From assembly GCA_000934665.2 (NCBI GenBank), contig JYFJ02003820.1, positions 1 through 37,194 of the forward strand: a stretch of DNA of 37,194 bases, written 5' to 3'. Position 1 is the first letter of the stretch; each line of letters starts with the position of its first letter. Source of the DNA: Catajapyx aquilonaris (lineage: Eukaryota). Position numbers and translations under genes: made by a program. Of the stretch, positions 2,165 through 35,353 are shown piece after piece. The notes beneath the pieces were generated by a model. It saw only the letters and a list, made by a program, of their open reading frames with translations, was not told where the DNA came from and did not search any database.

Positions 2165-2770
2165 GAAGGTTTCAAGTTCTACAAGCCAATTTTGGTCACT
2201 CACAGTCATACTGTAATTATCCAGAGAGAGACACAGTAATGAACGAGATCCGATTCACTGGTTTTTGATCATCTGATTTAGTGTCAACGAGGATTTTGAC
2301 ACCTCAAAACAAACGGGCGCAAGAGTATTAATTGAATTTCGAATTTTTTACACGATGATTGACCATTTTAGTGCCTGATTGCAACCAAATTATTGATCTG
2401 ATGGTCCGGAACTGGTTCGGTTACAGCCCCTTTTTTTGGTAAACGGAGCCAGAGTAGCCTATTGCTATTTGCATGGTTGTGATGGGGTGCCAAGTGGTCT
2501 TTGTGGTGGAGGAGGGCATGCTGTTTGTCATCAATTGTCATTATTGTTGTGGTGACCTCGAAGCAGCCTTTCTTCTTCAGCTGACCTTGCAGGGGTTTCG
2601 GGTCTTCTTTGTCTCCTTCACATATAGAGAAGCGAAAAAATGAATGGATCAGTCTCCAGACAGCCGTTCAGCCATATCTCTGTCCTTGTTGTTATCGCAG
2701 TGTACCTTCAATTACATGCTGTTGTGACACTAAGCTTCTTATTATAACTCAAGCTGTTATTTACAGTTGG
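2165..2770. repeat. Diverged duplicate of ~4105-4730 (partly also 22480-22750): 3' end region of the ankyrin-kinase genes
   Basis: Shared collinear blocks such as ttttggtcactcaca, ttttagtgcctgattgcaac and cagcctttcttcttcagct. Confidence 0.8.
2577..2615 (-). other. Orphan or alternative terminal CaaX exon (ETKKTRNPCKVS*)
   Basis: AG acceptor, then GAG ACA AAG AAG ACC CGA AAC CCC TGC AAG GTC AGC TGA. Homologous to the exons at 4537-4566 and 22523-22564. Confidence 0.55.
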
Positions 2771-3494: not shown

Positions 3495-4028
3495 CTGTCG
3501 TCTCACACTTGGAACAAAATGAAACGCAAACAGAGAAGGATAATATATTATGTGCCCTTGACAAATAAATCAAGCCACCAGGAGGGCAAACACCTGCCCA
3601 TGACCACAGACTACCATCAATAATTCTGCCCATAATTTCATCCGGAATCAACCAGGCATTCAGACCAAATGGATCAAATGGCATGAAACATTTCGGACAA
3701 GATGAACAACGCTGTCAAAAATCACTCCTCCAAACATGATGATTCCAGCCAATCTAAAAGGACAGACTCGAGCAGCCCATTCGACCAAAAATTCTCCACC
3801 AGTTTTTCAGTTTCAAGCGAAGGTAAATATTATTCCAATCTGGGATGTGCAAACTGCATTCTGAACTTTGACATATTGTTTTCTACAGAGCTCTCAGGAT
3901 CATCTGAAAAGAAATCGGGCTCTGGCAAAGGTCACTCAGCCATAAGGAAGTCCAAAGTGTCAGACTCCTGCTTTTCAGACAGATCAGAAGAAAACAGCGG
4001 TGAGAAGGCAGGCCCTATATATTGCTGA
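3495..4028 (+). pseudogene. Inverted, internally deleted relic of the Ser-rich secreted protein gene
   Basis: 3495-3660 is the reverse complement of the copy-2 upstream region (~17655-17830). It is fused directly to mid-gene sequence (VKNHSSKHDDSSQS; intron 3823-3888; SGSGKG). The TATA region and signal-peptide exon are missing. Confidence 0.7.
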
Positions 4029-4536
4029 GATTGAAAATACGTAGTACACACGGTGTTTACTACGTACAGTATTTTCAATTTTTTGATCATAGCTCATGTT
4101 CGGAAGTTTCATGTTCTGCAAGTCACTTTTGGTCACTCACATCCATAAGGACACACATACACACACAGTAAGGAAGGAGATTCGACTCACAGGTTTTTGG
4201 CCCTTTGATTTCAGGTAAACAATGATGGATTTTGCTGCCTCAAAACTTAACGAACAAGAGCAATAATTGCATTAATTTTTGACAGGTGATTGACTATTTT
4301 AGTGCCTGATTGCAACAAAATAGTTGATTTGACCAGAACTGATTTGGTTACTTCATCATTTTTTTTGTGTTTTTTTTTTGTTTTTTTGTTTTTTGTTTTT
4401 TGTTTTTTTGGTAAAGGGAGCTGATTTGAATGGTTGTGCTGTGAATCCAGCGGTCATTCTTAGTGGAGGAGGTTGGCATGCTGTTGGTCACTAGTGGTCA
4501 TCATTGTTGTGGTGGCCTCGAAACAGCCTTTCTTCT

Positions 4537-7500
4537 TCAGCTCAGGAGGCAAAAGTTTTGGTTCTTCTTTCACATACAGAGAAGGAAAAAAATTGAATGT
4601 ATCATTCAGACATGTAAGGTGTCTGTTCCTTTAATCGTTACACTGTACCATTCAATTAGGTACTGTTATTTTGACACTTTTCTGCTCATTTATCATCCTA
4701 TTTATTAAAGGGCACGAAGCTCAAGCTGTGATTTTGATTATGAGGCCTCGCACCAGGGAGCATATACTACATGTATAGTATATGCTCCCTGCTCGCACTA
4801 ACTAGGAAATTTGTTGACTCTTTGGTTACATAAATCCAATGTGCCCCCATGCAACACAACTCCCTGTAACATCTGATGAGTTTGTACTAACTGAGGTTTC
4901 GTAAAGTTAGCCCAGCTTTAACTCGCGTTCATGCAACTGGCCATAGAACCTTACATTGATGATGACAATAATATTAGTACTGATAAATCCTAGAAAAGAA
5001 CAGCAATCCTGCAAAATCTTATGACTCTTCACATGTTAGTCAGTATAGGCTCCCTGTGTTCTGTTCATTTCATGCAAAATGGGAATTTTAAAGTTATTTA
5101 AACAACTCTTGTCTTCTAGCTAATTCATTCCCTTCATCCCCGTAACCCGTGAGCATCTGACTTATTACTTACTACATGGGTTACAGCCTCCCTAAATAAA
5201 TCACCTCGCATCTCTTGACATAATGTACCTTCTCGAAAGGTGTCCTCCCACCCTTGTCTCTGGCCTCCTTGTCCGCTCCCTTGGAGAGAAGGAAGCGAAC
5301 CAGTTCATGATGGTTGTACCATGCCGCATAGTGGAGTGGGGTCCAGTCATCCTTTCCCTTGTCCTCCAGCCCTGACCCTTCCTCCAGGAGTAACTCCACA
5401 ACAGGGGCGTGGCCTCTATAAGAAGTAGAGTGGATGGGCTGGTTACCATCCAGGTCCTTTGCCCCCACCTGAGCCCCTCCCATGATCAGGATCTTGGAGG
5501 TGGACAGGTGTCCTTCCCATGCTGCCAGGTGGAGGGCTGTTCTGCCATAATAGATTCTCTGGTCGACAGGCCACCCTTCACCCAGTAGGTAAGCCACGAG
5601 CTCTTCCCTTCCTCCCCATGCAGCCCAGTGGAGGCCACTCAGTCGATCTTTCCTCTCCTTCACCCACTCCTCCAACCAGCCCCTTCCCACTTCCACCATT
5701 CCCTTCACCTCTTCCAGCCTCCCTCCCTTGCAGGCCTCCAGGAACAATGATGTCATGAATGATGGCGTCTGAAAGGAAACAAAGAGACCCGCGTGATGGC
5801 ATCACTAATCTTGATCACTCTCTAGAAGTCTAGAACTACTGCAGGGAGAGTTGCACCATCTGACAGTGAGACGTACTGTATGAACACGAATGTTGCGATG
5901 AATTTTCATGGGGGGAAAAAAAACCAAATTTTGTTGCGTGGGTTTTATGCAGTACCGCATATTCATACCGAATAGTTCACATCAGAGCAAAATAATTGCA
6001 AACTTCTCTGATATTTTATGTACTCACTTATAATAGTGCACGATCAGTATTGTGCTAGACACTATGTTGGTTAATGTGCATTTAACTAACCCATGATTTT
6101 TTTTTGTTGCCGTTAAATCAGTCATGTAGGCTACAGATCTCAAGCTTTTTCCATAATTTGTATTTCATAGTAGGCTGCTATTGGATGAATACCCACATTG
6201 GAAAATGTCACGCTTATACTTTGCTGCATCGGATTAAAATTGATGGTACTCTGCTGTCAGGTGAAAGGCAATGCCGTGCCATCCCCCTTAAATATTAACT
6301 TTCAATGTACCGTACTGTCAGGTTGATTTTTCTAATTAGTCAGCATCTGCCAAACATAAATATTATCTACACCTTAATCTCTTTTGAATGAAAGTTATGT
6401 GGCAGCTAACTCTGCTATTCACGTGCATAGACTAATAATATACTGCGTACGAGAGCTAACTCTTATTATTATTATTGGTGCTTTGGCTATGAAGGATATT
6501 CATAACAACACGAGGAAATCAGTTAATTTACCAGAGGAAATGAATACTGCATCCTGTCCAGCAACTCCTGGACTTGTTTCTCCACGTAAGATGATGGCAC
6601 TCTTGTGGACGGATCGAGTCTCAGCATCTGCTGAATCAGCTCATGTACCCCGTCATATGTGAAGCCCTGCACGAGATTGTCCCCACTCCTGAGGGAAGTG
6701 TACGAGCGTGTCCTCGCATCCTTGTTTTCTCCGAATGGGAACAGCATCTCGTGGAGGACCAGGCCCATCGAAAAGACGTCACTCTTCTGATCGTACTGTC
6801 TCCCGCTGATTTGTTCGGGTGAGCCGTACAATCGTGTTCCAACACCCGAAGTCATCTCTGCTGGTGGCTGAGGAAGAGGCGGGATTCCTGATTGGGATGG
6901 TTGGACGGGATGGGAGTGGTCACCAGCATGGACTGGATGGTGGGATGGGGAAGGAGAATGGGCCATGAGAGAGGTGGAGAGGCCAAGGTCCCCAATCTTA
7001 GCACTTTTTCCATCCAGGGAAAACAGGATGTTGTGTGGTTTCAGATCCCGATGGATCAGTCCCTGGGAGTGGAGATAGGACACTGCCGACATTGCCTGAC
7101 GGAAGTAGGTCAGGCTGACAAACGTGCCTAACCTTTGACCCTTGTCGAGCTTGTGTCCCAGCGTCTCATTCCGACAAAGTTCAAGCTGCATGAAGAGGAA
7201 GTCTGTGGTTGGTCCTGACACCGTCATGGGAGCGGAGAAGTACTCGGATGCTGCCTCTGAGGCCTCCCTTGCCTCTGGACCAGACCTGTTGGAGCATGTG
7301 GCCGCCATGGAGTCCCACTCCTTGTGCACCCAACACGGTGTCCTCTCCGTCCAGGCGTGCTGGAACCTCACAATGTGATCGTGGTTCAGTCGAGCCAGAG
7401 TCTGGACTTCCCTCAGGATGACCTCCTTCAGCTGATCGTCTTGAGGCAGAGGAACCCTCTTCACAGCGTAACGTGCCTTCGCCAGCTTCAGTTCAGCCTC

Positions 7501-9249
7501 GGTCACGACCCCGAAGGACCCCTCACCCAAGATGGACTCCTGCTTGTAGTCCAACATGTACCTGGATGTCGTTTCCTTCGTAGCGTTCGGCTCGTTGACA
7601 TCGGCCCTGAGGAATGGATTTTAATGAGTTCGTATATCTGACGAAACGATGCTGTAATTTTTAAAAAATTAATGCACAGGGAATTAAAAATTACAATTGA
7701 AAGATACAAGACTATGCATACATTAACCAACTTATGCGCCAAGGTCTACCAGAGTGCATCGCAAAGGTAGGACCTTCCTAATATGTTGAACTGAAAGGGT
7801 TTACTGCAAGATTTTTCTTGAGTGATTCGGTGGAAGAAACGCCTGAGCCAACCGGACACAACATTTCAGCAATTAAAAATTCCTGACTTGGAGTCTCTTA
7901 CTCCCCCAATGCTGTCCTAGCAAAAGTACGTCTTGTTGGTTTCTTCATGTTATTGGCAAAAAAATGAGTGTCTGAAGCAGCTATATGTCATAAAACCTTC
8001 ATGTAATAATCTTATATGGCATCGCCAATGTTTCAAGTGCAAAACTTGAGTTATGAAGGCATGCTTATAGATCTCGATTCATATGACCAACTCAATATTA
8101 TCGTGATACACATCAAAAGAGATCCTTGATGGAAGTGTATTATAAATGAGGCATTTGCAATGGAGAAAGTTTTGCACAAATTTTCCTGTCATATGTACTA
8201 CAAGGAAATGTGCGAAGTGAACGGATTTCATGCACTTACCTGGCCTGTGGGGCATGAACTGACTTCAAGTGATCCATGATGAATCGATGCACCTGTACAT
8301 GATTTTTGAGAAGGGCCAGAGAGGCGGGTGTGGCCCCATCCTTGTCCGTGGCCTGGGGGTCACTCTTTCCCTCCACCAAAAGGATGCTGGCCACTTCCAG
8401 ATGGCCGAACATGCAGGCCAAGTGCAGTGGGGTGTGGCCAGTGTGGGTGGTTCGAGTGTCCGAGGAGCCTCCTCTGTCCAGGAGGAGTCTGCATGTCTGG
8501 ACCAGACCACTCCTGGCAGACCAGTGGAGGGCTGTCCTTCCCTCCAAGTCCCTCGCGTCCACCGCTTCCTGTCCAGTCAAGCCCAGAAGGGATCGACAGA
8601 CGCCCACCTTCCTGGCCCGACACGCCACCATCAGGGGGGTCTCCCCATGTCCGTTCCTCTTATTCTTCACCTCTTCTTCTCCCAACAACTTCCGGACGTC
8701 CTTTTCTCTTCCCATGGCTGCCATTATATGGATGGCTTCTACAATGTCCACAAGGAACTTGACCATCTCAGTTCGATCCTTGATGACTGCCACCCCTTGG
8801 GGCGTCTTCCTGTCCCCATTCTTGTCTCCAGGATCTGCCCCCCACTCCAGGAGAAGCCTCCCCACTTGGACGTTCCCGGCCTCCGCCGCCGTGTGCAGAG
8901 GGGTGTCCCCCACCTTGGTCTTGGCCATTGGGTGTGCCCCTTCCTCCAGCAGAAGGCGGCAGACCTGCAGGTGGTTGAACTCTGATGCCTCGTGCAGGGC
9001 AGTCCTGTCCTGGTGAGTGGAGGCCAGGTTGACCCTTGCCCCCCTCTTGACCAGTTCCTCGCACACTGGAATCCAACCACGTCTGGAGGCCACCATCAGT
9101 GGGATCACTCCATTCCTGCTTCTGCAGTCCACGTCCGCTCCTCTGCCCAGCAACGTCTTTACAGTGGTCAAGGAGCCATTTTCGGCCGCGTAGTGCAAGT
9201 CTGCCAGGCTCTTGTCCTCCGACCCCACGGTTGTTGCTGCTGCTGCCAT
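4537..9249 (-). CDS. Ankyrin repeat - eIF2alpha-kinase-like domain - ankyrin repeat - CaaX protein, copy 1 (exons 9249-8240, 7606-6532, 5768-5205, 4566-4537; ~892 aa)
   Basis: Phase-compatible GT-AG junctions (2,0,0) join ORFs 8236..9249 (ANK), 6523..7557 (kinase: LGEGSFG, YAVK, LFMQLELC, IHRDLKPHN, DLG, GVGTRLYGSPEQ) and 5181..5756 (ANK). The last exon KNQNFCLLS* is joined through a weaker GTGATT donor. An upstream exon is possible. Confidence 0.8.
4754..4791. mobile_element. 38-bp TIR-only derivative of the CAGGGAGCAT MITE family
   Basis: cagggagcatatacta...tagtatatgctccctg, flanked by the exact 7-bp direct repeat ctcgcac (4747-4753, 4792-4798). Confidence 0.8.
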
Positions 9250-12622: not shown

Positions 12623-14210
12623 ATGCGTGGTGTACCAGTGAGCAGAGCAATGCTGGTTGCTCTTGTGATTGTGACCCAGATGTGCACGGTGACCTCAGGG
12701 GCAGGAGGGCTACTTTCCAACCTACTGGGGAAGGAAAAAGGCCTGGGTGACCAGCTGACGGATGTGGACGTGGCCGCCTTGAACCAAGGAGAAGAGACAG
12801 GGGCAGAGGCCGACGGTGGGGAGGCGAACGTAGCGGTGGCAGTGGGCAACGAAGGAGACGAACCAGGGGCAAAGGCTGGAGGAGAAGAGGGAGGATTAGT
12901 CGATGTGGCGATAGCAGCTCTCAACCAGGAGTCCTCTGGAGGTGGAGAAATAGGCGTGGTACAGCAGGTGATCCAGACATTGACTGGTGCACTCGGAGTT
13001 GGCAGTGGAGGAACCACAGGAGGAAACCAAAAGTTAAACGGTGAGAGCACTTACATTAGTTATCACACGGGGGGGTTATACATAAGTACACTTAAAAATC
13101 GGTTGATATTTTTCAACTCATTATGTAAAAATTATAAATTCATATGTGAATCATAACTATAAAACTTAATCCTGTCTGATAGACTTACGTATAATATATT
13201 TTTACTTGACACGTAGGAGTGGATTTGGCGTGTATCTTGGACATACTGAAGGAAAAGAGATGTATTAAGAGGAGCAGCACATATCCATGGACAACGAAGA
13301 AGACAACAAGAGTCACATCGACTACCACTGAACCGACTACTGCTGCTTGCTCTGAAGAAGAGACAACGCAAAAAACAACAAACTCCAAGAGAACTACCAC
13401 TGGAAAATCTACTAGAAGACCAAGCACTACCAGGGAGCCAATGACTTCCACCAAACGTCCAGCGACAACCAGGACCACACCAAAGAAGCCAACAACTCCG
13501 ACTGTAACAACAAAGCAGCCAACGACTACGACTAAATCAACACAGAAGCCTACGACTACGACTACGACAACTATGAAGCCCATCACTACGACTAGGACAA
13601 CAAAGAAGCCCACAACAACAACTACTACCACCACAACAATGAAGCCCATCACTACGACTAGGACAACAAAGAAGCCCACAACAACTACTACCACCACAAC
13701 AATGACGCCCATCACTACGACTAGGACAACAAAGAAGCCCACAACTACTACTATCACCACAACAATGAAGCCCATCACTACGACTAGNCCATCACTACGA
13801 CTAAGACAACCACTCTAACGACCAAGAAAGCGACCACTCCCACAACCACTGTAACGACCAAGAAGCCGACAACACCCACAACCACTGTAACGACCAAGAA
13901 AGCGACCACTCCCACAACCACTGTAACGACCAAGAAGCCGACAACACCCACAACCACTGTAACGACCAAGAAAGCTACCACTCCCACAACCACTGTAACG
14001 ACCAAGAAAGCGACCCCTCCCACAACCACTGTAACCACCAAGAAGCCGACAACACCCACAACGACTCTAACCACAACGACAACAACTGCTGTGCCTAAAA
14101 CATCCCCATGCGCAGGGGAGGCGACTGAAGCAACAACTACAGCAACCACCAAAAGCAAAGGGCTTCTTGGGAATATTCTCTCGACTGCCACCAATTTTCT
14201 AGGATTTTAG
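12623..14210 (+). CDS. Secreted Thr/Lys/Pro-repeat mucin- or glue-like protein (exons 12623-13040, 13217-14210; assembly N at 13788)
   Basis: Signal peptide, Gly/Glu-rich region, phase-1 intron, then MKPITTTRTTKKPTTTTT and 36-bp TTKK(P/A)TTPTTTV tandem repeats, ending GLLGNILSTATNFLGF*. The frame changes at the N. Confidence 0.75.
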
Positions 14211-16606: not shown

Positions 16607-17451
16607 TTACCCGTTCATGAATCCACTGCCTGCCTTAACCATCTTTTTGCCAATCTTAGCAAAAGGATTGCTTTCTCCCTTATTCTTCGTGCCGCGTTCT
16701 TCGTCTGAGATGCCACCAGCAGAAAAGCTAAAACTGAATGAATCGCTTGAATCCGACTCTTTGGACTTCTTTGTGGCTGCGTAACCTTTGCCAGAGCCAG
16801 ACTTATCCTCAGATGACCCTCCTGGCAGCTCTATATGTAAGAAACAATTGAAGTGTCATTTATACAGCCCAGCTTGGAGTAATAATTTACCTTTTCTCGG
16901 AAAACTTGCTGGAAAACTGGAGTTCACATTGGAGATTTCCTGATTGAATGACCCTTCAGATTGGCTGGAATCGTCATGTTTGGAGGAGTGATTTTTGACA
17001 AAGTCGGGCATCTTGTCCGAAATGTTTCGAGCCGTTTCATTCATTTTGTCTGAAGCTTTCCTTTCTTCCGAGCTGGAGTCCATGGAATTTTCGAATTCCG
17101 TGCTGAGTGATTCTGAAGAGGAGTCTTGGGATGAGCTGCTTGGATGCTGCTCAGAAGATGACGATTCGCCAGACGAGGCTTGGGGTCTGTCGGTTGTCGA
17201 GGTCTGGACACACCCTTGGAGGCGACATGGTATTGCTGTGGAGCCAACAGATGTTGACTGGGAAGATGGTGTCTATCCTTCACTTGTCTGCTGAATCACT
17301 GGCCCTGCAGCAGTGAGAAAAGTGGCGGATTGTATCACTTTTCCTAATAATCAAGAGAGGACATCAGATCCAAAAACCGTTTTCAAAAATGCTTACCCTG
17401 AGCGAATCCAGCAGTGACGAGTCCAGCCAAGATGAAGAAGAGAGGCGACAT
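16607..17451 (-). CDS. Secreted Ser/Asp/Lys-rich protein, copy 2 (exons 17451-17397, 17304 or 17235-16891, 16830-16607); possibly pseudogenised
   Basis: Signal exon MSPLFFILAGLVTAGFAQ, 60-nt intron 16831-16890, ends GKKMVKAGSGFMNG*, AATAAA ~35 nt downstream. There is an in-frame TAG at ~17273-17275 if the acceptor homologous to copy 1 is used. Confidence 0.65.
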
Positions 17452-19821
17452 GGTTGGTTTAGTCCGGATCTACTCGTCTGATCTGATTCAGTGGCAGGCC
17501 GAGTGTGAATCTATCCATGGGAGGACCCCTCTTTATATCTCCAAAACTGGAGACGTCACTTGCGAGCAGAAAAATAGCTACATTTTATTCGCATGACGGA
17601 TTGTGGCAGATATGTCTGGCTGTGTTGACGAATGACTGTTGAGCTAGGTGAGAACAATGCCTGGGTTGTCTACGGGTGAAATTATGCCCATTATTGATGG
17701 TATAGACTCGCTAGTCTGTGGTCATGGACAAGTGTTTGCCCTTCTGACGGCTTGATTTATTTTTGTCAAGGGCACAGTGACGTATGTCCTTCTCTATTTG
17801 CGTTTCATTCTGTGTAAAGAGTGGAGACGAACTTTTCCACCGAGCGTATCTTGCTAGTGGCCAGCATATACTCTAGTTATGCATTACCGCAATTAGGATA
17901 ATTATGCTGCAGTCACATCCTGGATCCTAGTTCACCCGCTGGATGATTGGTCCGGACTCTTAGGATATACTTGTTTATTTTGGACTTGTCTATTATTTGT
18001 TTGAAATTAATTATTGCAATTTCTCATTTGGATACCGGTATTTGCTCTACTATTATTATTTTGATTGCTCTAACATGGGCTGCTTTTTGAGCAGTTTTGT
18101 GCCAAACTAAAATGGACATCTCTATATAGGAAAGGTGTATTATTTATTACGCACAATATGCAAACTTTTAATGGTAATGTCAGATAAACATGCAACATAT
18201 CTATTATTTTTGTCCCGTAACAGCTGCTAAAATGCTCAGTACGTATAGCTGTACAGTGTGCAGTGCATTTCATTCACCCCTCGTGATTCAAGGTCAGCAG
18301 ACGTATTCCACCTGTGTAAGTGCATGAACAACAAACATACAAGGCAAAAAAAAAAAGCTTGCGGAAAACTATCAAGAAAATATATCTCGACCGATATAGC
18401 TTTATAAAGGTTATGTCAGATAAACCTAAGAAAGAATAGTAGACTCTAGGAAGAAACCGGTTTTAATTATGCCAACTGTCTATATTTTACACAATGTTAA
18501 TGAGCCGACAGGCCGAGTAATAAAGGTGTTTGGGAGACGTATCAAGTGCGTATGAGTTTATTGAATGTATAACATGACTAATTTCTATTTCAAGGACAAC
18601 GCAGTTTTTTTCTGCAAGGTAAGCAAGCTGCATTCAGTCCTTTTTTTCCCCAAAGTTATCAACCTGATTTTTCCCCCTTCCTTCTCCGTCGAGTCAGGGC
18701 TGATCTAATTAACCCCCCGCTGGAATTAAAATATTAGTACAAAAAACCACATGTATTACTCATTTCATGTAGGCCAACTTGTACATTGTAGCAAAACACA
18801 GACTTGTCGTAACAAAATGACATCTGTTCGCATCGACATGCTTTGGACCAATGTTATTAGTAGTCGGAGATTGTTTATTTTTTTTTGCCGCTGATGAAAA
18901 CGCATCACAATAATTACGCACAATTACTGATCTAGTGCACTGGTCGACTTCAAGGCCAACTGACTTGTCAGTTAGGTCAGTTATTCTAGATCCAAGGATA
19001 TCTTGTTTATTATTTGTGGACAAGTGCGCAAAATGCTCTGCATGTAATTAGGGGGATATAATTATGTAGACAAATGATTGTCTCAAACACATGCACCTAT
19101 TGGCATGCAACTTAATTTTTATTCCTCAAAATAATATTGTATATTTTTTCTAATCATTTTTAGACAAACTAGGAAGAAGAGAGAGTAATGCGCACAGGGC
19201 AGTGACACAACCAGTATAAGAAACAATGTAGTTAAATTGAAAATAGCGTCCTGTGATAAATAATTAATAGTTGCGCCATCCTGATACTATATAGGAAATT
19301 GTACCGAAAAATACCGGTAAATGTTATTGCAAGGAAGATGCCCAGAAAAAATAGCCGAAAAATGCATGCATTTGCACCAATAAGGCCACCGTTTTTTTGT
19401 GTAAAGTTATTTTACCCTGTGCAGGCTACTCAACTTGCCAGACGACTTAATTACCATATTTTTCACATCAACTGAATTACGCTTCAGTTGTAATAATGAA
19501 TGGAATACTGATACATAGACTGGACTTGCAAGGCAGGAAATCTAACCAAGGCAAAAATAAGCTTGGCCAAAAAATTCACCAATGAGGACTGGTGCTTGTT
19601 GCAATATTAACGATTGTTACATTTACAATAGCAAACAATATATTATTAAAGTGTGCACCCACATAATATTTGATTCTACGCGTACATAATTTATTAATCA
19701 TGATTGCAGAAGGAGATCGAGAGTGTATTAATTTTTACAACAAACATTACATTAAATATTATCGAGATTATTTCTAGCCATGTACACATTCACTTTGCAC
19801 AAAATTAAGCGCCACTGCTCA

Positions 19822-20270: not shown

Positions 20271-22086
20271 ATGAAGGTCGCACTCTTCGCAGCCCTGCTC
20301 TGTCTCCTGCCCATCTTCACACAGGGGCAACAGACCAACTTCACTCTTGGTAATACTCGTTTTAATATCAATTATTATAGCATTTAAAACAGAACTGCTG
20401 GATTGCAGATGATGCATTCGCCAAATGCAGAAACGCAAAGAAGCATGATGTGGGTACGTGCATCGTGAATCTGATCAACGAGGACTTGCAGCCTCTCATT
20501 GCTCAAGGTACAGTGGACGGGCATTGTTGGGGGTGGACTGCCATAACTGATGGACCATTCTTGCCGGTTCAGATTGGGAGAGGATTTGTTGTATCTTTAA
20601 AAGTGCAAAGGAGGTGACTTACTACATTCAGATTGATGTGAAAGGAGTGGGTGTGAAGAGGAATATCCTCAACAATGGTTTGACAATAATAATCGAGTGT
20701 CTTTTTTCGGAGCGCAGGGATACCCGAGCTGGGATTGGACGGAGAGAGGCTAGATAACTATAACTTCACTTTTGACGATGCCCAAGCAAGCAACTTCCTC
20801 AAGGCTGGCTACACTAACGGATACTTCAGGGGATTCAACTTGGACTTCAGGCTGCAGCATCTCAAGTGAGATCCTATCTATCTTATTCCACGTTTGGTGT
20901 TAGTTTGCAATATATTCGGGCATAAAAATTAGCGATAAAATATATTAATCACAGTGCATTGTAAGCATCTCACATCACACGAATGCTGCCTCGTGTTTGC
21001 ATTATTTAAAACCAGTTTTCCGACTGGTTCCTCTCCACAGGATAGATTACGACAAGAAGCTGGCAGCCTGGTCAGCATTTGCGCCTAGCTTCACCTTCTA
21101 CGCCAACTGCTTCGTAAACGCCTCCTTACTGTTGGTCAACCTGCAAGGAGAGGGACCATGCTGGTGGAACATCCGTAAGTGATTGATCAGAAAATAATAA
21201 TAATCACCTTGGGTGGAATTGGGCAGTATATAGTCGTGGGACGAAAATTCGACCCCCTGACAGGGAGCATATACGTACTATACATAAGAGGCGCAACCTT
21301 CGGTCAGCGCCATTGATTTCCGCGTCTCTCTATTTGGGGTCGTTGCCAAGGCTGGCGGCCATTTTGAAGTGGGGGCAACGCCAACGAGGTATAAGTAGGG
21401 TACAGGCAAAAATAGGGCCCGCCATCTTTGATGGTTTTGGCGGCCATGGCAACTACACGGCAAGAACAGGCGCGAATCAAAGATGGCGGACCCTATTTTT
21501 GCCTGTATCTATTTATACCTCGTTGTGGCTTTGCCCCCACTTCAAAATGGCCGCCTGCCTTGGCAACGGCCCAAAGCAGAGAGACGCGGAATTCGAATGT
21601 TTCTGCCTCTTATGTAGTATATGCTGCTCCCTGCCCCTGACACCATTTTTAATGGCGATATTATTATTTTTCCAGATAACGCGACCTACACTGGGATCAC
21701 CAAACTGGCTGTGGAGGAAATAGACGGTGACCTCCGTCTTCAGGAAGAATCGACTGACTTCGGTTTCAACATTAAAAACCCAACCTTCAGGATGAAGAAC
21801 CTCTTCCAAGGAAACGAACTTGTCGGTAAGGTCAATATTATTAAAGTCTCATTCTGATGACAAATTGGCAACTTTCATACATCTCTTCTCTCGTATTGTT
21901 GCAGAGGGGGTGGCCTGGCTTTTCCTCGACGAGAATATTGACGCTATGCTTGCTCTGATGAGAGACGATACCAGGAGATTCTTCCGAGAACTCACAGGGA
22001 ACATTGTCAACAGGGTTCTGGCCAAGATCCCCATCAAGAAACTGGCCGGATACCAGTACTTGAAGGAGGCCTTCAACATACACTAA
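20271..22086 (+). CDS. Takeout / haemolymph juvenile hormone-binding protein (JHBP) family protein (exons 20271-20349, 20409-20507, 20718-20865, 21041-21174, 21676-21825, 21905-22086)
   Basis: Signal peptide MKVALFAALLCLLPIFTQG, N-terminal Cys pair, GIPELGL motif, LLLVNLQGEG, MKNLFQGNELV, FLDEN...NRVLAKIP. All junctions are phase-compatible. Confidence 0.85.
21261..21633. mobile_element. Palindromic MITE in JHBP intron 4
   Basis: CAGGGAGCA...TGCTCCCTG termini, long imperfect inverted arms, 7-bp direct repeat cccctga on both sides. Second full copy at 28045-28420. Confidence 0.9.
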
Positions 22087-22522
22087 TTGCTTTGTGTGGC
22101 TGTCTCGTGACTAAATTGAAATTTCATTTAACAGAGACGGGAGAAAGAGGCGACCTTGATGACCAAATTATTTGTGCATTTTTCGCCAACTTTTTGTGAG
22201 CGTCTGCCATGTAAACAATCACTTTTGCTTTACTTTTCAGCGCTATTTTTCGCGACAGTAATATTTTCCTTGCAAGTGTGCCTAGACGTGCTCCAATTTG
22301 CAATCCCGCCTTTACATTAGTATAGATGTTACTTTTTTGCAAAGAGATTGGCAACGTGCAAAATTACTGCATACGTGTTTTGTTACTGTTGATATGCAGT
22401 CAAACATGTGGAGACAATAGACCGAAGCTAGATCCGGATCAGGCTTGTATCTTTTTGTTGCGGAGGAAGTCACGAGGTTGATCATCAGTGGTCATTGTTG
22501 TGGTGGAACAAATCTTCCTCCT

Positions 22523-25500
22523 TCAGCTGAGTGTGCAGGGGTTTCGGGACCTCTTCTTTGTCTCCTTCAAAGCAAATACAGTAAATAGAAAAGGGGACAA
22601 CAAATATTAACAAACCATTCTCTCCAAACATGTCTGTTCAGCCAACAATCGCAAACCATGTTCCTTCAATAATCAATCCCGTTATTTTGACACAATGCTG
22701 GTTATATAAAGCTGCTTCTTTAAAACGTTATCAAGCTGCTTTACTTATACAGAAAGTGTGTTAGGCAACTGTCAATGCCTCCCTATAAATAAATACCTTC
22801 AGAAGCTCTACGACATGAACGTGTCCTCTTTCCTCTGCCAGATCAAGAGATGTCCTCCCGTATTTGTCCCTGGCCGACTTGTCAGCTCCCTTGGACAGAA
22901 GGAAGCAAACCAGTTCTGGTCGGTTGTACCATGCTCCATAGTGAAGCGGGGTCCCGTTCCCTATTCCCTTGTCCTCCAGTCCTGCCCCTTCCCTCAGGAG
23001 TAAGTCCACAATCTGGACATGGTCTTCTCGAGATGCGAGGTGGATTGATTGGTTCCCAAATCTATCCTTTTCCATAACATCTGCCCCTTCTCCGATCAGC
23101 ATCTGGCAGGTGGGCAGATGTCCTCTTCGTGCTGCCAGATGAAGAGGTGTTCTGTCCCAACCATCTCTCTGATTAACAGGCCATCCTCGTCCGACGAGAA
23201 AGGCAATCACCTCGTCTCTTCCTTCCATTGCAGCCAGGTGGAGTCCACTCCGTCCCAAATCATCCCTCACCCTCATCCACCCTTCAACTCCATCCTGAAC
23301 CATCATCTTCACCTCCTCCAGACTACCACCTTCGCATGCCTCCAGGAACGTTGCCTTTTTCTGGGAACCAACATTTGCTTTGCCATCTGCTCTGGAATGA
23401 TTATTATCAGAGATCCTTCCAGATTCCTTCCCGCCCTCCAGGTTCCTTTCCAGAAGTTGGGAGGTCGAATGGTGTCCCATAATAGTCGCCCACTCATGAG
23501 GTGCTTTTCCATTCTTGTCCTTCTTCCCTGGATCCGCTCCGTTTTCCAGGAGGAGGAGGACTGTTGACTTATGACCACTCCTTGCAGCAAGATGCAGAGG
23601 TGTCATATCGTAACGATACGCTGAGTCCACCTCCACACCTCTGTCCAGGAGGAAGTGGATGACATGGGAGTGACCATACGAAGCAGCCAGATGGACGCCG
23701 CTTCTTCCGTACATCTGATCCACTGCCCCAACCACGTCCACTCCCATTACGTCTACCCACTTCTCAACTTCGGACAGGACACCCTCTCTGCAGGCTTCAA
23801 AGTATCTCCCGAAGTCCAACTAAGGGGGAAAGGAAGAACACCATCTGTGAATTTTCAGACACCAATTATGCTCACCTTTCCCATCCTGTCCAGGGACATC
23901 TGGACTTGTTTCTCCACGTAAGAAGACGAAACTCTTGATGACGGATCGGGTGTCAGCATCTTCTGAATCAGCCCTGCTTCCTCTACATTCTTGCTCGTAA
24001 AGTCATTTGGAAATGCGTTTCCACTCCTGAGGGAAAGGAAGGTCCGTGTCCTTCCTTCCTTGTCCCCTCCAAATGGGAACAACAGCTCAAACAGGACAAG
24101 GCCCATGGAATAAACGTCTGTCTTGGGCCCGTACTCTCTCCCGCTCATCTGCTCAGGGGAGCAGTAGAGTCTGGTTCCAACACCCGCTGTCATGTCCGGT
24201 ATTGAAGGAAGAGGATTAGGGGAGATGACCTCTGGTTCAGATGGGTCACCATGACCTGGATGGTGGGAAGGAGAGGCCAGAAGGGAGGTGGACAGACCGA
24301 AGTCTGCAATCTTCACACCCTTTCCATCCAGGGCAAACAGGATGTTGTGTGGTTTCAGGTCTCGGTGGATCAGGCTCTTGGAATGGAGATAACAGACTGC
24401 AGATGCTATTTGTCCGAAGAGGGTGAGTTTTGCGAACTTGCACAGATTCAATCCTCCTCCGTCCATCCTGTGTCCTAGTGTCTCCTTCTTACAAAGTTCG
24501 AGCTGCATGAAGAGGAAATCCGTGGTTGGGCCTGTCACCGTCATGGGAGCTGAGAAATAGGCGGATGCTGCCTCTGAGGCCTCTTTTGCCTCTGGACCAG
24601 GCCTGTTGGAGCATGTGGCCGTCATGGCGTCCCACTCCTTGTGGACCCAACAAGGTGTCCTCTCCGTCCAGGCGTGGTAGAACTTCACAACGTGATCGTG
24701 GTCCAGTCGAGCCAGAGTCTGCACTTCCCTCAGAATGACCTCCTTCAGGTGCAGGTCTTGAGGCAGAGGAACCCTCTTCACAGCGTAACGTGCCTTCGCC
24801 AGCTTCAGTTCAGCCTCGGCCACGACTCCAAAGGACCCCGCACCCAAGATGGACACCTGGTTGTAGTCCCACATGTATCTGGACACGACTGTCGTTTCCT
24901 TCGCACTGTTCTGATCGTTGACTTCGACCCTGAGTAATGGAATAATTAATGAGTTGTTACAGTATAATCTGTGAAGTGGCCACCATAATGTTATTTCATG
25001 CACTCACCTGGCTTGCATGTGATAGGTCCACTTCAAATGATCCATGACGAATCTGTGTACTTGGACATGACCCTTGAGAAGGGCCAGAGAGGTGGGTGTG
25101 GCCCCATCCTTGTCCTTGGCCTGGGGGTCACTCTTTCCCTCCAACAAGAGGAGGCTGGCCACATCCAGATGGCCGAACATGCAGGCCAAGTGCAGTGGGG
25201 TGTGGCCAGTGTGGGTGGTTCGGGTGTCCGCGAAGGCCCCTCTGTCCAGGAGGAGTCTGCACGTCTGGAGCAGATCACTCCTGGCAGACCAGTGGAGGGC
25301 AGTCCTTCCCTCCAAGTCCCTCTCGTCCACCTCTTCCTGGCCAGTCCAGTCCAGAATGGTGCGACAGACGCCAACCTTCCTGGCCCGACACGCCACCATC
25401 AGGGGAGTCTCCCCATGTCCATTCCTCTTGTTCACCTCTTCTTCTCCCAACAACTTCCGGACGTCCTCTTCCCCTCCCATGGCTGCCATTATATGGATGT

Positions 25501-25999
25501 CTTTTGGAATATTCACGAGGAACTTGACCATCTCAGTTCGATCCTTGATGACTGCCACCCCTTGAGGCGTCTTCCTGTCCCCATTCTTGTCTCCAGGATC
25601 TGCCCCCCACTCCAGGAGAAGCCTCCCCACTTGGACGTTCCCGGCCTCCGCCGCCGTGTGCAGAGGGGTGTCCCCCACCTTGGTCTTGGCCATTGGGTGT
25701 GCCCCTTCCTCCAGCAGAAGGCGGCAGACCTGCAGGTGGTTGAACTCTGATGCCTCGTGCAGGGCAGTCCTGTCCTGGTGAGTGGAGGCCAGGTTGACCC
25801 TTGCCCCCCTCTTGACCAGTTCCTCGCACACTGGAATCCAACCACGTCTGGAGGCCACCATCAGTGGGGTCACTCCGTTCCTGCTTCTGCAGTCCACGTC
25901 AGCTCCTTTGTCCAGCAATATCTTGACCAGTGTCAGAGACCCATTTTCTGCAGCGTTGTGTAGGTCTGTCAGGCTCTTGTCTTCTGTTGCTGCTGCCAT
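22523..25999 (-). CDS. Ankyrin repeat - eIF2alpha-kinase-like domain - ankyrin repeat - CaaX protein, copy 2 (exons 25999-25008, 24929-23876, 23819-22797, 22564-22523; ~1036 aa)
   Basis: 78-nt and 56-nt GT-AG introns join the ANK, kinase (LGAGSFG, YAVK, HRDLKPHN, DFG, GVGTRLYCSPEQ) and ANK ORFs in frame. A phase-0 intron 22565-22796 leads to ETKKRSRNPCTLS*. Confidence 0.85.
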
Positions 26000-29024: not shown

Positions 29025-30488
29025 ATGCCACGGAAAAAGCAGCCGCAGACTCTCCGCCAGATCAGCCTCAGTGCACTGGCCAGCACCGTACTTGAAGCAT
29101 GTACCAGCGACGAACACGACCAGATCAGCCAGTACGTCCGTGACATACCGAAGATGTTTGCAAATGAGTACGTCAACGAGCTGCTGCGGTTGTGCACATT
29201 GCGGACTGATCACTTCAGCATCACCTGCGCTTTCCATCCCGAGTGCACGGAGATAAACAAAAGCCGTATAACGTCATCGCGGCATTGGTATCACCAGTTG
29301 TTGGTCGGTCTTCACGTAATGAGCGAACTGACTGTTCTGAAACCGAATGTCGAAGCATTAAAATTCAAGTGCGATGTTATGCAAGAACTTCCCTTTCCGC
29401 GTCTCAGTAAACTGCGATCGCTTAAACTGGCGCTCAGATCGTACCCGGAGCTCTTACTGCAAGTGGTTGAAAACTGTCCGCGGTTGGAAGAAATACGAGT
29501 CGTTACACGCATGCAGTTTGAGTGGACGCCTCTAGCGCAATGTGTGCATCTGAAAAGAATTTTTGTACGTCCAATACATCCGTTTGATGCCGTGTACTTG
29601 CTGGATCAGCTTCCAAGCCTTGAAATTTTGGAAGTCGATGACATGGCGAAAGTACTGCCACTGTGCGAACATGCATATCCGTTAAAGAGTTTCGTTCGAT
29701 GCCTGAGAGTAAGCAAGTCAGCTTCGGTGCAAAAGCTTGTAAGTCATTTTCCGCATCTACAAGAACTAGACTTGGAGCTATCCGGCGACATTAATCTAAG
29801 CCCGATTAACGAACTGGCTAACCTCAAAGGCTTAACAGTACGACATGGTAATTGCGCGAACCTCGCTTGCCTGATGGACCCCTGCGTACGCCGTCTTTCA
29901 AAATTAGCGTTAACCTATGTTTTTCACATTGATTCACTGTTTAACGAAGACGTCGTGCCGACTCCGCTCGAGACCCTAGGTATTTTGGGATGTACCGGAA
30001 TTAATTTGGCGGCTATAGGCAAGATATTTCCTAAGCTAAAGTCGTTTAATGCACGGGGCGATGAATTCATTGCGCTTCCCCCGTATCAAATGCTTGGTTT
30101 TCATGAAGTTGAGAGCTTGTTCGTAACTAGCAAGCTGCCGAGATGTCATTTGAAAAGCCTGTTGTCGTCCATCAGGAAGCTTAAGTACTTGGACATACTA
30201 AACATATCCGGTGACATGTTCGTCAGCCAATATCTGGCCGAATCGAGACTGAAGTACTTGTGCGAACTGTGCCTACATGACGACAACATGACGAAGGATG
30301 TGATTCCGATTATTCTGGAATCAACCGGCGATGACTTACATAAAGTGCTGTTGTTCGGCAACAACATGGTGTTGTCCCGTAGCGAAATGGATGCGTTATC
30401 CAGCCTCTTGCAGGTTTACGACATACATTTTTTCGTCAGCTGCGGAGAAATGCAGTTCATGCACGATTCACGTCTGGGATTTTACTGA
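29025..30488 (+). CDS. Intronless leucine-rich-repeat protein (487 aa) with a BC-box-like N-terminus; putative Cullin-RING substrate receptor
   Basis: Long ORF with repeated LxxLxL units (LSKLRSLKL, CPRLEEIRV, LPSLEILEV, FPHLQELDL, LANLKGLTV). N-terminal PQTLRQISLSAL. Confidence 0.75.
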   Translation: MPRKKQPQTLRQISLSALASTVLEACTSDEHDQISQYVRDIPKMFANEYVNELLRLCTLRTDHFSITCAFHPECTEINKSRITSSRHWYHQLLVGLHVMSELTVLKPNVEALKFKCDVMQELPFPRLSKLRSLKLALRSYPELLLQVVENCPRLEEIRVVTRMQFEWTPLAQCVHLKRIFVRPIHPFDAVYLLDQLPSLEILEVDDMAKVLPLCEHAYPLKSFVRCLRVSKSASVQKLVSHFPHLQELDLELSGDINLSPINELANLKGLTVRHGNCANLACLMDPCVRRLSKLALTYVFHIDSLFNEDVVPTPLETLGILGCTGINLAAIGKIFPKLKSFNARGDEFIALPPYQMLGFHEVESLFVTSKLPRCHLKSLLSSIRKLKYLDILNISGDMFVSQYLAESRLKYLCELCLHDDNMTKDVIPIILESTGDDLHKVLLFGNNMVLSRSEMDALSSLLQVYDIHFFVSCGEMQFMHDSRLGFY

Positions 30489-32108: not shown

Positions 32109-35100
32109 ATGGACCAAGAACCTGCTGATGTGGTAACGGTCGTCATTTGGAGCACCCAAAAAAAATATGAAGCTCTATTTTATTGTGTTTTACATGATAA
32201 TTATTGTAGGATAAAGATCAGCAACTTGCGGAAAATTTGAAGCGGAATAAATACATGTCAAAATGTCTGATCCATGAACTGCTCGTTCTAATCAGATTTT
32301 TTTGGTGAAATTGGTGCTGGATTGGGGGTTATTAAAAATTTAAATTCATTCCAAAACAGAGCTTAACTTATTGATAAATTATTTCTCTTATTATAATAGT
32401 ATTATTATTTTGGTAAGATACTATAAAAATTGAAAGCTGTACAACAGTGCTGATCTGAGAGAGAAATGTTGGAATGTAATGAATTTGCAATTATTTGGTT
32501 CCCAACTTTCAAGCAATACACTAAGAACCTGTAGTTATTTATTTTAATATTATTATGGTTTTGGTAAAATTTTGGTACGTACCGTAAGTTACTAAAAATT
32601 GAAAGCTATAATATATAGCAAAACGGTGCTGAACTGGGAGGTAAATGTCTGAAAATCATGAATTTTGCCAATTTGTTTTCCTAACTCACTTAATGGCGCT
32701 AAGAGCCTGTAGTTATCCGTTATTTATCCCAATTATGATTTTGGTAAGTTACTAAAAAGTTTAAAGCTATAACACATAGCAAAACAGAGCTGATCTGAGA
32801 GAGAGAGAGAGAGAGATGTTGGAATGTCATGAATTTGCAATATTTTTTCTAACGTTGACGAAATGTGTTAAGTACATGTAGTTATTTATCTGCTTCACCG
32901 GCCAGGGTCGGGGGGTAAAACTCAAGCTCCGTAAAACTGGCATTTACGGAGGGATTGGAAAGTACGGAGGGTGGAACTCCGCGATTTTCTGTTTTACGGC
33001 GGCTCCCCCCGTAAATTCGTGCTTTTACCGGGGTAAAAATTTCTACCGCGACTGGTGCACCCGGCCCTCATTATGGTTTTGGTAAATTAACATCCATAAA
33101 CATGGCAATGCCCATGCTAAACAAGTCGCGGACGCCATCACATAACGTATGGTGCGACATTACTTTTGCGGTTAATAGTACAATGATTAAAAAATTGCAA
33201 ATGTGGATTTTTTCACCATATTTTTTTAAAAATGTCAACAAATTTAATTCCTGCCCATTCCCATTTTCTCCAGTTGAAATATTGAAAATTTACACCAACA
33301 AATTGCAGATGCAACCAAATGAGCTTTGTGTTTCTAATAATTGTTATCTGCAATGTCTGCTAAACAATTATTGTACATTGCAACAAACTCGATCCTGTAG
33401 CAGATCCTTATCGTGTGACAAGGGGAAATCGTTGACCGGATCTTTTGCACTTTTCAGATCGATGATCCAACTTGGATTGCCAACAAGGAGGTACAGGCTG
33501 GTGAAATCCTGGCCTTGGAAAGCACGTGTGACCAAGACGAGATCAAGGTGCAGCGGGACTCATTTAGAGTCTGGTTTGTCGGTGATATCCATGCGAAACC
33601 CCAGCTGGACGGTGCTACGATTGAGTTGAAGTGGAGGAAAACCAGAGCGAGAGGTACTTTATTCCGTCATTTACGGATTACATCACGTGCTTTTTAGACA
33701 ATCTGGATTTGCTGTGTTTGGTGCTCCCTGCTATAAGTCGTAAATGCCTCATTAACTAACCGATGTAACTTCCAGGTGAATATGAAGCGGCGAACATCTC
33801 CCACCTGCCTGCGATAACGCTCCACTTCCTGCTGCCTTGCACTTACCCTTCGCACAGCCCACCAGAGTTTCAACTGCGGTGTTGCTGGCTCAGCGAGGTC
33901 CAGGTGAGTATATAAAGAGTCCTGCCATGCGTTCATCCTGAAACTTGCTCTCTAATTTCTCCACGACTAGCTCTCCAAACTGTGCAGACGCATGGATGAG
34001 ATCTGGGCTGAGGATGAGGGTTGCGAAGTCCTGTACAAATGGATGGCATTCTTACGCGAGAAGAGCCTTGAATTCCTCGGGTGCAAGAGTGTCCTGAACC
34101 TGACCGCAATTGTGTTCAGACAATGGCAGAAGAAGTCACATCCTCAGCCGAAACGGACCCAGAAGAAGTCAAATCCACAGTCAAAAAGGACGCAGAATAA
34201 GTCGAAGAAACGTGCTGATCCGAATGTTGATGATCTTGCGAAGATAATCTTCATGCCCCGTCCTCGCAACACTGAACCTGAAGGAGTGCCTTATCTGGAC
34301 AGACGCACCAAGGTGATCCTTCCTCCGTCCGTCGCTGTAGTGGAAAAGCCCTCTCTGTTGCCATACTACCTGATCCACTTCTCCCAGCAAGAAATGCAAT
34401 CCCAGTACGACGCTGCTTTCCAAACGTGCAAAATTTGCATGGACACGAAAAGAGGACGCGAATTCACTGGCATACTGGGATGCGGACATGTTTTTTGCAC
34501 CGAGTGCGTCAGGGAGTACTTAACTGCTCAAATTAGAAGCGGATGTGGACGGGACCTGCTGTGTATGGAGGTAGCCTGCGACTGTGCGGTATCAATTACA
34601 CAGGTACTGTGCGCTTGAACCGCCACAATTTTGTATTCCTAATTTATGGCTATCCAACAGATAAAGGCCTTGGTTGATCCCGAGGTGTTCCAGATGTACG
34701 ACCAGGCTCTTCTGGAGTCATCGCTGGCCTCGATGAGCGATGTGGTCAAGTGTCCGCGGCCGTCTTGCCAGTGCGATACCATCATGGACTCTGACAACAT
34801 GGCTGTATGCAGCAAATGCGGGTTCGCATTTTGTGTGGAGTGCCGTGCAGCCTACCATGGTGTCCAGCCCTGTGCGATGTCAACTCATGAACTACGTAAG
34901 CTGGCCAAGAAGTACGAATCGGCTAGCCCCGATCTGAAGCGAGAGATGGAACGCGAGTACGGACGCAGGCATCTAACCACACTGCTGAGCCAATACCTGT
35001 CGGACGTATGGATGCAGGACAATGCCAAGACCTGCCCCAAGTGCAGGGTCTTCATCGAGAAGTCAGACGGATGCAACATGATGACATGTCACAAGTGTGC

Positions 35101-35353
35101 CGAGCCTTTCTGCTGGTTGTGCGGAATGAGCCTGGACAAGACCAATCCGTACAGTCACTTCTGGCGGAACGATTCCAGCTGCTTTGAAAAGCTGATGCAA
35201 GGCATGGACGTGGGTGGCGATGAAGTGGATCCGGAGCTGGCAGCGGCTCAAGCTGAAGAATGGATGGATGCAGAAGATGAGGAAGTGGATGAAGTGGTAT
35301 GGATGCTGGAGAACCAGATCGGGGCGCTTATCACACTGGAGCGTGAAGGTTAA
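32109..35353 (+). CDS. RNF14: RNF14/ARA54-like RBR E3 ubiquitin ligase, RWD-RING1-IBR-RING2 (exons 32109-32132, 33458-33653, 33776-33903, 33971-34603, 34661-35353; ~557 aa)
   Basis: RWD motifs NKEVQAGEILALES and HLPAITLHFLLPCTYPSHSPPEF; RING1 CKIC...CGHVFCTEC; IBR CPRPSC...CSKC..FCVEC...HGVQPC; RING2 CPKC..IEKSDGCNMMTC..C..FCWLC, NPYSHF. The first micro-exon is less certain. Confidence 0.88.
32395..32890 (+). repeat. Diverged tandem repeat, ~3 units of 150-185 bp, in RNF14 intron 1
   Basis: Recurring ttttggtaag..actaaaaattgaaagcta..gtgctgatctgagag..atgttggaatg..atgaattt..cctgtagttat. Confidence 0.75.

Follow-up and report, generated by a model that had tools for sequence, protein, structure and literature searches.

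A candidate terminal micro-exon that may give an ankyrin-flanked, PERK-like kinase of Catajapyx aquilonaris a CaaX-type membrane anchor

Where does a protein end when the stop codon that terminates its genomic reading frame lies just beyond a possible splice donor? This question is raised by a kinase gene on contig JYFJ02003820.1 of Catajapyx aquilonaris (assembly GCA_000934665.2), of which we analysed a stretch of 37,194 nucleotides, hereafter called the window. The window is eukaryotic DNA with short GT..AG introns, and its minus strand carries two tandem paralogous genes, A and B, each for a PERK-like kinase flanked by ankyrin repeats. A preliminary description of this locus proposed that a hidden micro-exon adds a short tail, basic and ending in a CaaX motif, to the product of gene A, turning it into a lipid-anchored kinase, and every coordinate and peptide that it gave was found in the sequence, exact to the base. 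Judging from the sequence, we consider that the segment at 22564..22523 is, with somewhat better than even probability, a real 3′-terminal coding exon used in gene A. We also lean slightly towards the complete explanation, in which this exon is spliced, the kinase is anchored through its CaaX motif and gene B follows the same design. Should the exon be used, farnesylation of its product would be quite probable by analogy with known CaaX proteins.

In its four-exon spliced model, gene A extends from 25999 to 22523 on the minus strand. Exon 1 (25008..25999) contains the start codon and the N-terminal ankyrin block, as shown by translation of its open reading frame (ORF) and by Pfam (Ank_2, 2.4e-57), and it ends in CAG followed by a GTGAGT donor. 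Exon 2 (23876..24929) encodes the PERK-like kinase domain with its kinase insert, recognised from its translation, from Pfam (Pkinase, 6.9e-43) and from matches in the PDB, while exon 3 (22797..23819) encodes the C-terminal ankyrin blocks (Ank_2, 1.3e-63). Introns 1 and 2, of 78 and 56 nucleotides, have GTGAGT and GTGAGC donors and pyrimidine-rich CAG or TAG acceptors. Exon 3 ends in ...CTG AAG at 22797, corresponding to the protein end ...VELLK, and is followed by a phase-0 GT at 22796-22795. If the candidate third intron (22565..22796, 232 nucleotides) is retained, the frame reaches a TAA stop at 22763-22761, reading ...VELLKVFIYREALTVA, so that the protein would finish in VFIYREALTVA at 22761. 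If it is removed at the acceptor AG at 22566-22565, 232 nucleotides past the donor, translation would continue through 22564..22523, which encodes ETKKRSRNPCTLS followed by TGA. When the four exons are joined by script, the resulting frame is open and encodes 1036 amino acids. Beyond the stop, the presumed 3′ untranslated region (UTR) begins with a conserved segment (22454..22522) that belongs to a self-BLAST block shared with 2500-2620 at 75% identity.

Gene B (9249..5205, minus strand) has the same plan, but it is without about 155 amino acids of the C-terminal ankyrin region that correspond to the start of exon 3 in gene A. Its first exon (8240..9249) encodes an N-terminal ankyrin block that is 92% identical to that of gene A at the nucleotide level, its second (6532..7606) a paralogous kinase domain with DLG in place of DFG and 71% amino acid identity to A in a MAFFT alignment, and its third (5205..5768) the C-terminal ankyrin block, recognised by translation and tblastn; the introns between them measure 633 and 763 nucleotides. 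Pfam Ank_2 matches gene B at 5e-56 and 1.2e-27, and the ankyrin families in both genes score above the gathering threshold. The last repeat of gene B has an 18-nucleotide in-frame deletion that leaves the frame open, and a second phase-0 donor, AAG followed by GT, is found after 5229. The third exon ends in GAG followed by GT, with 5205 as its last base, and the unspliced frame stops at 5183-5181.

Two further copies of the tail lie downstream of gene B on the same strand. In the proximal copy, B, an acceptor AG at 4568-4567 opens 4566..4537, which encodes KNQNFCLLS*, and in the distal copy, C, an AG at 2617-2616 opens 2615..2577, which encodes ETKKTRNPCKVS*. These two candidate last exons lie 638 and 2589 nucleotides from the donor of gene B, and joining either of them gives an open frame, of 892 amino acids with tail B and 895 with tail C. 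In the preliminary description, the three copies were treated as equivalent. Their homology holds, but not their equivalence, as no kinase gene is associated with copy C, which lies beyond both copy B and an inverted fragment of a neighbouring gene. Because the three copies are homologous, they are not independent occurrences, and what they add is the pattern of their conservation.

The exon and intron logic that had been proposed was borne out on inspection. Both genes have a phase-0 GT donor at a homologous site, exactly where the last ankyrin repeat ends, the acceptors are the best or near best available, and the spliced frames are open. For splice-site strength, we relied on a crude pyrimidine count and on judgement by eye. 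When all downstream AGs are ranked by upstream pyrimidine content, the acceptor of copy A is first of 41, that of copy B first of 71 and that of copy C third of 194, and just 7.5% of the AGs across the whole window score at least as high as the copy A acceptor. The region that would be read through behaves differently from the donor. The unspliced peptides VFIYREALTVA* of gene A and VIYLGRL* of gene B are encoded by homologous DNA that differs in length by one nucleotide and is read in different frames. Thus, this region keeps the GT at its homologous border but no reading frame, as is expected of an intron. When the window was searched for a retrocopied form of the spliced junction, the site closest to the computed 30-mer had six mismatches.

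The principal alternative is that there is no splicing here at all. Genes A and B would then end at 22761 and 5181, and the block carrying the tails would be a 3′ UTR duplicated together with the genes, in which a CaaX frame arose by chance and was passed on by descent. We regard this as a possible but less probable account, and the conservation between copies A and C speaks against it. In a global alignment, 36 of 39 aligned exon bases are identical, with one in-frame gap of 3 nucleotides, compared with 56 of 77 ungapped columns in the 100 nucleotides upstream and 67 of 99 in the 100 nucleotides downstream. The best 40-nucleotide window lies on the exon (34/40), and windows that do not overlap it reach at most 29/40 (40 windows were printed, 8 of which overlap the exon). 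The excess has a binomial p of 8e-4 against a background of 70% and of 6e-3 against 75%, and Fisher's test gives p = 0.002. The peak thus falls on the interval between AG and stop, give or take 5 nucleotides, which a UTR without splicing would not anticipate, and the only indel within the exon is 3 nucleotides long, whereas the next one, just past the stop (A versus B and C), is 8 nucleotides long. The same holds for the position of the acceptor at the best polypyrimidine tract downstream of the donors and for the preserved GT described above.

The coding content of the tails points in the same direction. They end in CTLS (A), CLLS (B) and CKVS (C), so that all three copies keep the Cys at position -4, an aliphatic residue at a2 (L, L and V), Ser at X and the stop codon. 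Cys and Ser are separated by two codons that are different in each copy, and the second of them always encodes Leu or Val; a2 has therefore stayed aliphatic even though its codon changed in every copy. PMC11254824 lists Ser, Met, Ala or Gln as the X residues typical of farnesyltransferase substrates, together with an aliphatic a2, and the classification of Caa-Ser as a farnesyltransferase-type motif agrees with the rule as given there. The same source describes H-Ras, ending in CVLS, as well as the cleavage of the last three residues and methylation of the Cys that follow farnesylation, and names GRK1 as a prenylated kinase (PMC11254824). The candidate tail resembles that of H-Ras in having its Cys four residues from the end, an aliphatic a2, Ser at X and a hydrophilic linker before the Cys. 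It differs in that the motif becomes available only after removal of a predicted intron, in that there is no second Cys for palmitoylation and in that a Pro directly precedes the Cys. The parallel with GRK1 is that a soluble kinase fold would be brought to the membrane by a C-terminal prenyl group, here a candidate one, although the two proteins differ in kinase family and in domain architecture.

Words of this kind are not rare, which favours the chance account. On both strands of the window, we counted 10 occurrences of Cys-x-[VILMT]-[SMAQC]-stop, of which three are the tail copies and seven are further matches. Thus, a single word of this type downstream of a gene is unremarkable, and chance alone could place one in a few percent of 3′ regions. 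The basic residues distinguish two of the tails from this background, with 5 Lys or Arg among the 10 residues upstream of the Cys in copy A and 4 in copy C, compared with 2 or fewer in the seven other words. In K-Ras4B, a farnesyl group and a polybasic run together form the membrane signal, and the tails of copies A and C share with it a Lys/Arg cluster beside the candidate farnesylated Cys. However, the cluster is shorter than that of K-Ras4B, and Glu, Ser, Asn and Pro stand among or beside its basic residues. The polybasic character that had been claimed for the tail may apply to copies A (5/10) and C (4/10), in a weaker and more interrupted form than the archetype, and does not extend to copy B.

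Several observations weigh against the use of the exon, and some of them favour the account in which the block is simply a UTR. The junction 22797/22564 is itself a prediction. The donors GTATTT (A) and GTGATT (B) look weak by eye compared with GTGAGT, GTGAGC and GTAAGT elsewhere in the two genes, and the micro-exon acceptors read AAG instead of CAG or TAG. Two canonical poly(A) signals, AATAAA at 4706 and ATTAAA at 4635, precede copy B and fall within its putative intron. In gene A, no canonical AATAAA or ATTAAA is found between the exon and 22087, the limit of our scan, next to the stop of a convergent gene at 22086; only variant poly(A) hexamers are present downstream of the gene, so that poly(A) signals are uninformative for it. 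The four substitutions between the A and C exons are all nonsynonymous (S/T, T/K with two changes, and L/V) and none is synonymous, which places the excess conservation at the nucleotide level. Such conservation could be due to splicing enhancers, the micro-exon being rich in purines, but it would be explained just as well by an element of the UTR or by gene conversion over a short tract. Conversion between the loci is plausible, as identity is 92% in the N-terminal exons and 71-78% in the others. Moreover, the conserved run AGCTGAAG spans the stop codon and goes 3 nucleotides beyond it, and the 70 nucleotides that follow are conserved as well. In addition, searches of protein and metagenome collections returned no homologue from another organism in which conservation of the tail could be assessed.

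Copy B contributes further points on the same side. Its exon matches that of copy C at 20 of 30 positions, compared with 79 of 101 in the flank just downstream, so that it is not above its background, and it has lost 8 nucleotides that include the ancestral acceptor. It has only one or two basic residues (2/6 Lys or Arg before the Cys) and is not polybasic. That it is still in frame follows almost automatically, as its AAG codons would supply a new acceptor. The earlier proposal that Cys, Ser and stop are kept in all three copies while neighbouring codons vary is literally true, but the conserved run does not end at the stop. The selection that was read into this pattern is supported for the A and C pair only, at the nucleotide level (36/39), and not for copy B (20/30), which does not exceed its flanks.

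These features of copy B suggest a second possibility, in which the exon is real in A and C, copy B is a decaying pseudo-exon, and gene B either splices across 2.6 kb to copy C or ends unspliced. We would give this only a tentative place, and it refines the spliced explanation more than it opposes it. The tail blocks of B and C are about 75-80% alike across roughly 500 nucleotides, which makes B and C younger duplicates of each other, yet the C exon has remained almost identical to the A exon. This pattern is most simply read as two exons, A and C, that have been maintained and a spare copy, B, that is drifting. The loss of the old acceptor and of basic residues in copy B, the two poly(A) signals just upstream of it and the open 895-amino acid frame that gene B forms with tail C all favour this account. 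Nevertheless, copy B has the best acceptor tract of 71 AGs and an in-frame Cys-Leu-Leu-Ser followed by a stop, the 2.6-kb interval that gene B would have to splice across contains an inverted fragment of another gene, and the 20/30 match is not significantly low against a background of 78% (p = 0.10).

The arrangement of the neighbouring genes bears on whether the block belongs to the kinase transcripts at all. Along the window, a gene for a Ser/Asp-rich acidic protein (836-1989) comes first. Next are the block with tail C (2169-2654), a partial copy of the Ser/Asp-rich gene in inverted orientation (3498-3967) and the block with tail B (4106-4607), after which come gene B, another copy of the Ser/Asp-rich gene (16749-17830), tail A and finally gene A. 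The kinase genes and the Ser/Asp-rich genes were duplicated jointly as one segment. When the A unit is compared with the B/C unit by self-BLAST, the matches are the three coding exons and one 120-nucleotide block (22454-22569 versus 2500-2620, 75% identity), which begins 5 nucleotides upstream of micro-exon A; the remaining matches are only between copies of the neighbouring gene. Nucleotide identity between A and B falls from 92% in the N-terminal ankyrin exons (8225-9219 versus 24993-25984) to 78% in the kinase exons and 71% in the C-terminal ankyrin exons, and amino acid identity by tblastn falls from 87% to 67% and 55% in the corresponding regions. The 92% value suggests gene conversion or a much stronger constraint on the N-terminal arm.

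In this setting, the block could also lie outside the kinase mRNA, as a repeat, a mobile element or a regulatory region of the Ser/Asp-rich gene that was copied with the segmental duplication, but we find this improbable. It would account for the position of copy C, about 180 nucleotides from the homology start of the acidic-protein gene copy at 836-1989, and for the setting of the B and C blocks, which contain an A-rich run and have rearranged pieces of acidic-protein genes around them. However, copy A is 4.6 kb from its own acidic-protein gene copy and only 232 nucleotides from the donor of the kinase gene, copy B lies at the 3′ side of the inverted fragment, and all three copies are on the strand of the kinase genes. 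The intron of gene A aligns to the regions upstream of B and C, though only patchily, which indicates that tail and gene were duplicated together, and given the 8-nucleotide indel, no reading frame can be conserved past the exon on either strand. A gene on the plus strand running through the block was also considered, as there is an open frame, and was rejected on account of this indel and because no splice sites are conserved. The A-rich run itself, of about 50 nucleotides (~4330-4385), lies in tail block B, about 170 nucleotides after the stop, where block C has only 7 A's. Homology extends on both sides of it, so that it does not mark a retroposition boundary.

The kinase domain that would be anchored is clearly of the eIF2alpha-kinase, PERK-like type by sequence comparison, and the preliminary description had already assigned it to the eIF2alpha type. 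In the PDB, the kinase of gene A matches PERK (2.5e-56), GCN2 (3.6e-42), PKR (7.8e-37) and HRI (8e-32), and the best match outside the eIF2alpha kinases, SIK3 (1.1e-21), is more than 10 orders of magnitude weaker. The catalytic motifs of gene A are intact (GAGSFG, YAVKR, HRDLKP and DFG, all aligned to PERK), and the alignment to PERK runs end to end, through a motif preceding the glycine loop, the lobe insert, HRDLKP, DFG and SPEQ. An insert between the N-lobe strands is a feature of the eIF2alpha-kinase family. Here, it comprises about 40 residues (query 119-162) between two stretches that align to loop-deleted PERK, and it aligns to the loop in 3qd2_B. After SPEQ, PERK has the segment pfstqmer, which we take to be the part that docks eIF2alpha, and gene A has pfggdkegr and gene B FGENKDAR, so that Thr and Met are replaced while Glu is kept. 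eIF2alpha is a candidate substrate of the predicted kinase.

Close relatives of this kinase were not found in the collections searched. An exhaustive search of a library of representative proteins with the kinase exon gave 582 matches at 1e-30 or better, and the best of them is 35% identical. Among the best 44 of 150 listed relatives scanned with Pfam, none has an ankyrin family and 8 have double-stranded RNA-binding motifs. Word-index searches, in which the C-terminal ankyrin and kinase exons were compared with longer proteins and ankyrin residues 150-352 with proteins of near length, returned generic ankyrin proteins or distant kinases, with 28-42% identity at best. A metagenome scan with the alignment of the A and B kinases gave 51 pattern matches, none of which was a relative by tblastn; a protein atlas contained only generic kinase clusters, and the only matches of the N-terminal ankyrin block were generic ankyrin structures. 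A full-text literature search turned up no ankyrin-containing or prenylated eIF2alpha kinase, which does not prove that none has been described.

Thus, the predicted architecture matches no eIF2alpha kinase that we retrieved. In PERK, GCN2, PKR and HRI, the kinase is combined with a luminal, double-stranded RNA-binding, haem-binding or HisRS-like sensor, whereas here ankyrin repeats flank the kinase on both sides. PERK is membrane-tethered as well, but by a transmembrane helix, while the tether of the candidate kinase would be a lipid. If the anchor is real, this kinase would be a variation on two known themes, the CaaX-anchored kinase and the eIF2alpha-type kinase, the latter with both a new sensor and a new tether. 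This assessment rests on a single window and on three copies of the tail that are not independent.

Taken together, the spliced explanation would work as follows. Removal of the 232-nucleotide intron would join ...VELLK to a short, basic, hydrophilic linker ending in Cys-Thr-Leu-Ser, giving a protein of 1036 amino acids in which a PERK-like kinase lies between ankyrin repeats. Following the established CaaX route, farnesyltransferase would farnesylate the Cys, after which the three terminal residues would be removed and the exposed C-terminus methylated. Together, the farnesyl group and the neighbouring Lys and Arg residues could then keep the kinase at the cytosolic side of a membrane. The ankyrin arms may bind partners or ligands. 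Gene B would share this design with two candidate last exons, the distal one, C, keeping the ancestral sequence and the proximal tail B (4566..4537) having drifted, yet still ending in Cys-Leu-Leu-Ser. Retention of the intron in gene A would produce an unanchored isoform ending 11 residues after VELLK, and both forms may exist.

The rest of the window contains several features apart from the kinase genes. The Ser/Asp-rich acidic protein, encoded by the two gene copies at 836-1989 and 16749-17830, has no match in Pfam, and the inverted partial third copy (3498-3967) lies between tails C and B. On the plus strand, the last exon of a gene convergent on gene A (21796-22086) ends at 22086, which limits the 3′ UTR of gene A to about 435 nucleotides; it shows a weak resemblance to the JHBP family (E = 0.0014, below the cut-off). 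Two adjacent ORFs at 33971-35350 (plus strand) encode a RING finger and two IBR domains, and they therefore correspond to an RBR-type E3 ubiquitin ligase gene. A 487-codon ORF without introns at 29025-30485 (plus strand) has no Pfam match and its exact sequence is not in the protein collection; in fact, exact look-ups of two ORFs from the window in that collection found neither. A repeat of about 335 nucleotides at 21281-21615 and 28078-28409 matches in both direct (90%) and inverted (81%) orientation, so that it is internally palindromic, and it may be a small mobile element. Finally, the region at 13185-14210 consists of low-complexity tandem repeats with strong AT and GC skew and contains long Val-rich or Ser/Pro-rich frames.

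The fate of this short segment has consequences for annotation as well as for the biology of the kinases. Gene models based on ORFs or on homology would stop at the read-through stop codon, so that the anchor would go unnoticed. Without use of the exon, what is seen here would amount to no more than a conserved piece of 3′ UTR in a duplicated gene pair. If it is used, the membrane anchor would be toggled through the use of a 42-nucleotide terminal exon. The eIF2alpha kinases are defined by the stress that they sense and by their location, and one that combined ankyrin arms with a lipid anchor would extend the integrated stress response to a sensor architecture and a location that are both new to it. 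A more far-reaching interpretation, which seems to us rather doubtful on the sequences at hand, is that these genes represent a fifth class of eIF2alpha-type stress kinase, restricted to one lineage, in which ankyrin arms take the place of a known sensor domain and a farnesyl-plus-basic tether is encoded on a separate micro-exon. Were it true, the kinase would be anchored or soluble depending on whether the last intron is spliced out or retained, and the paralogues with their diverging tails (CTLS, CKVS and CLLS) would form a small family of membrane-proximal sensors for translational control or immunity.

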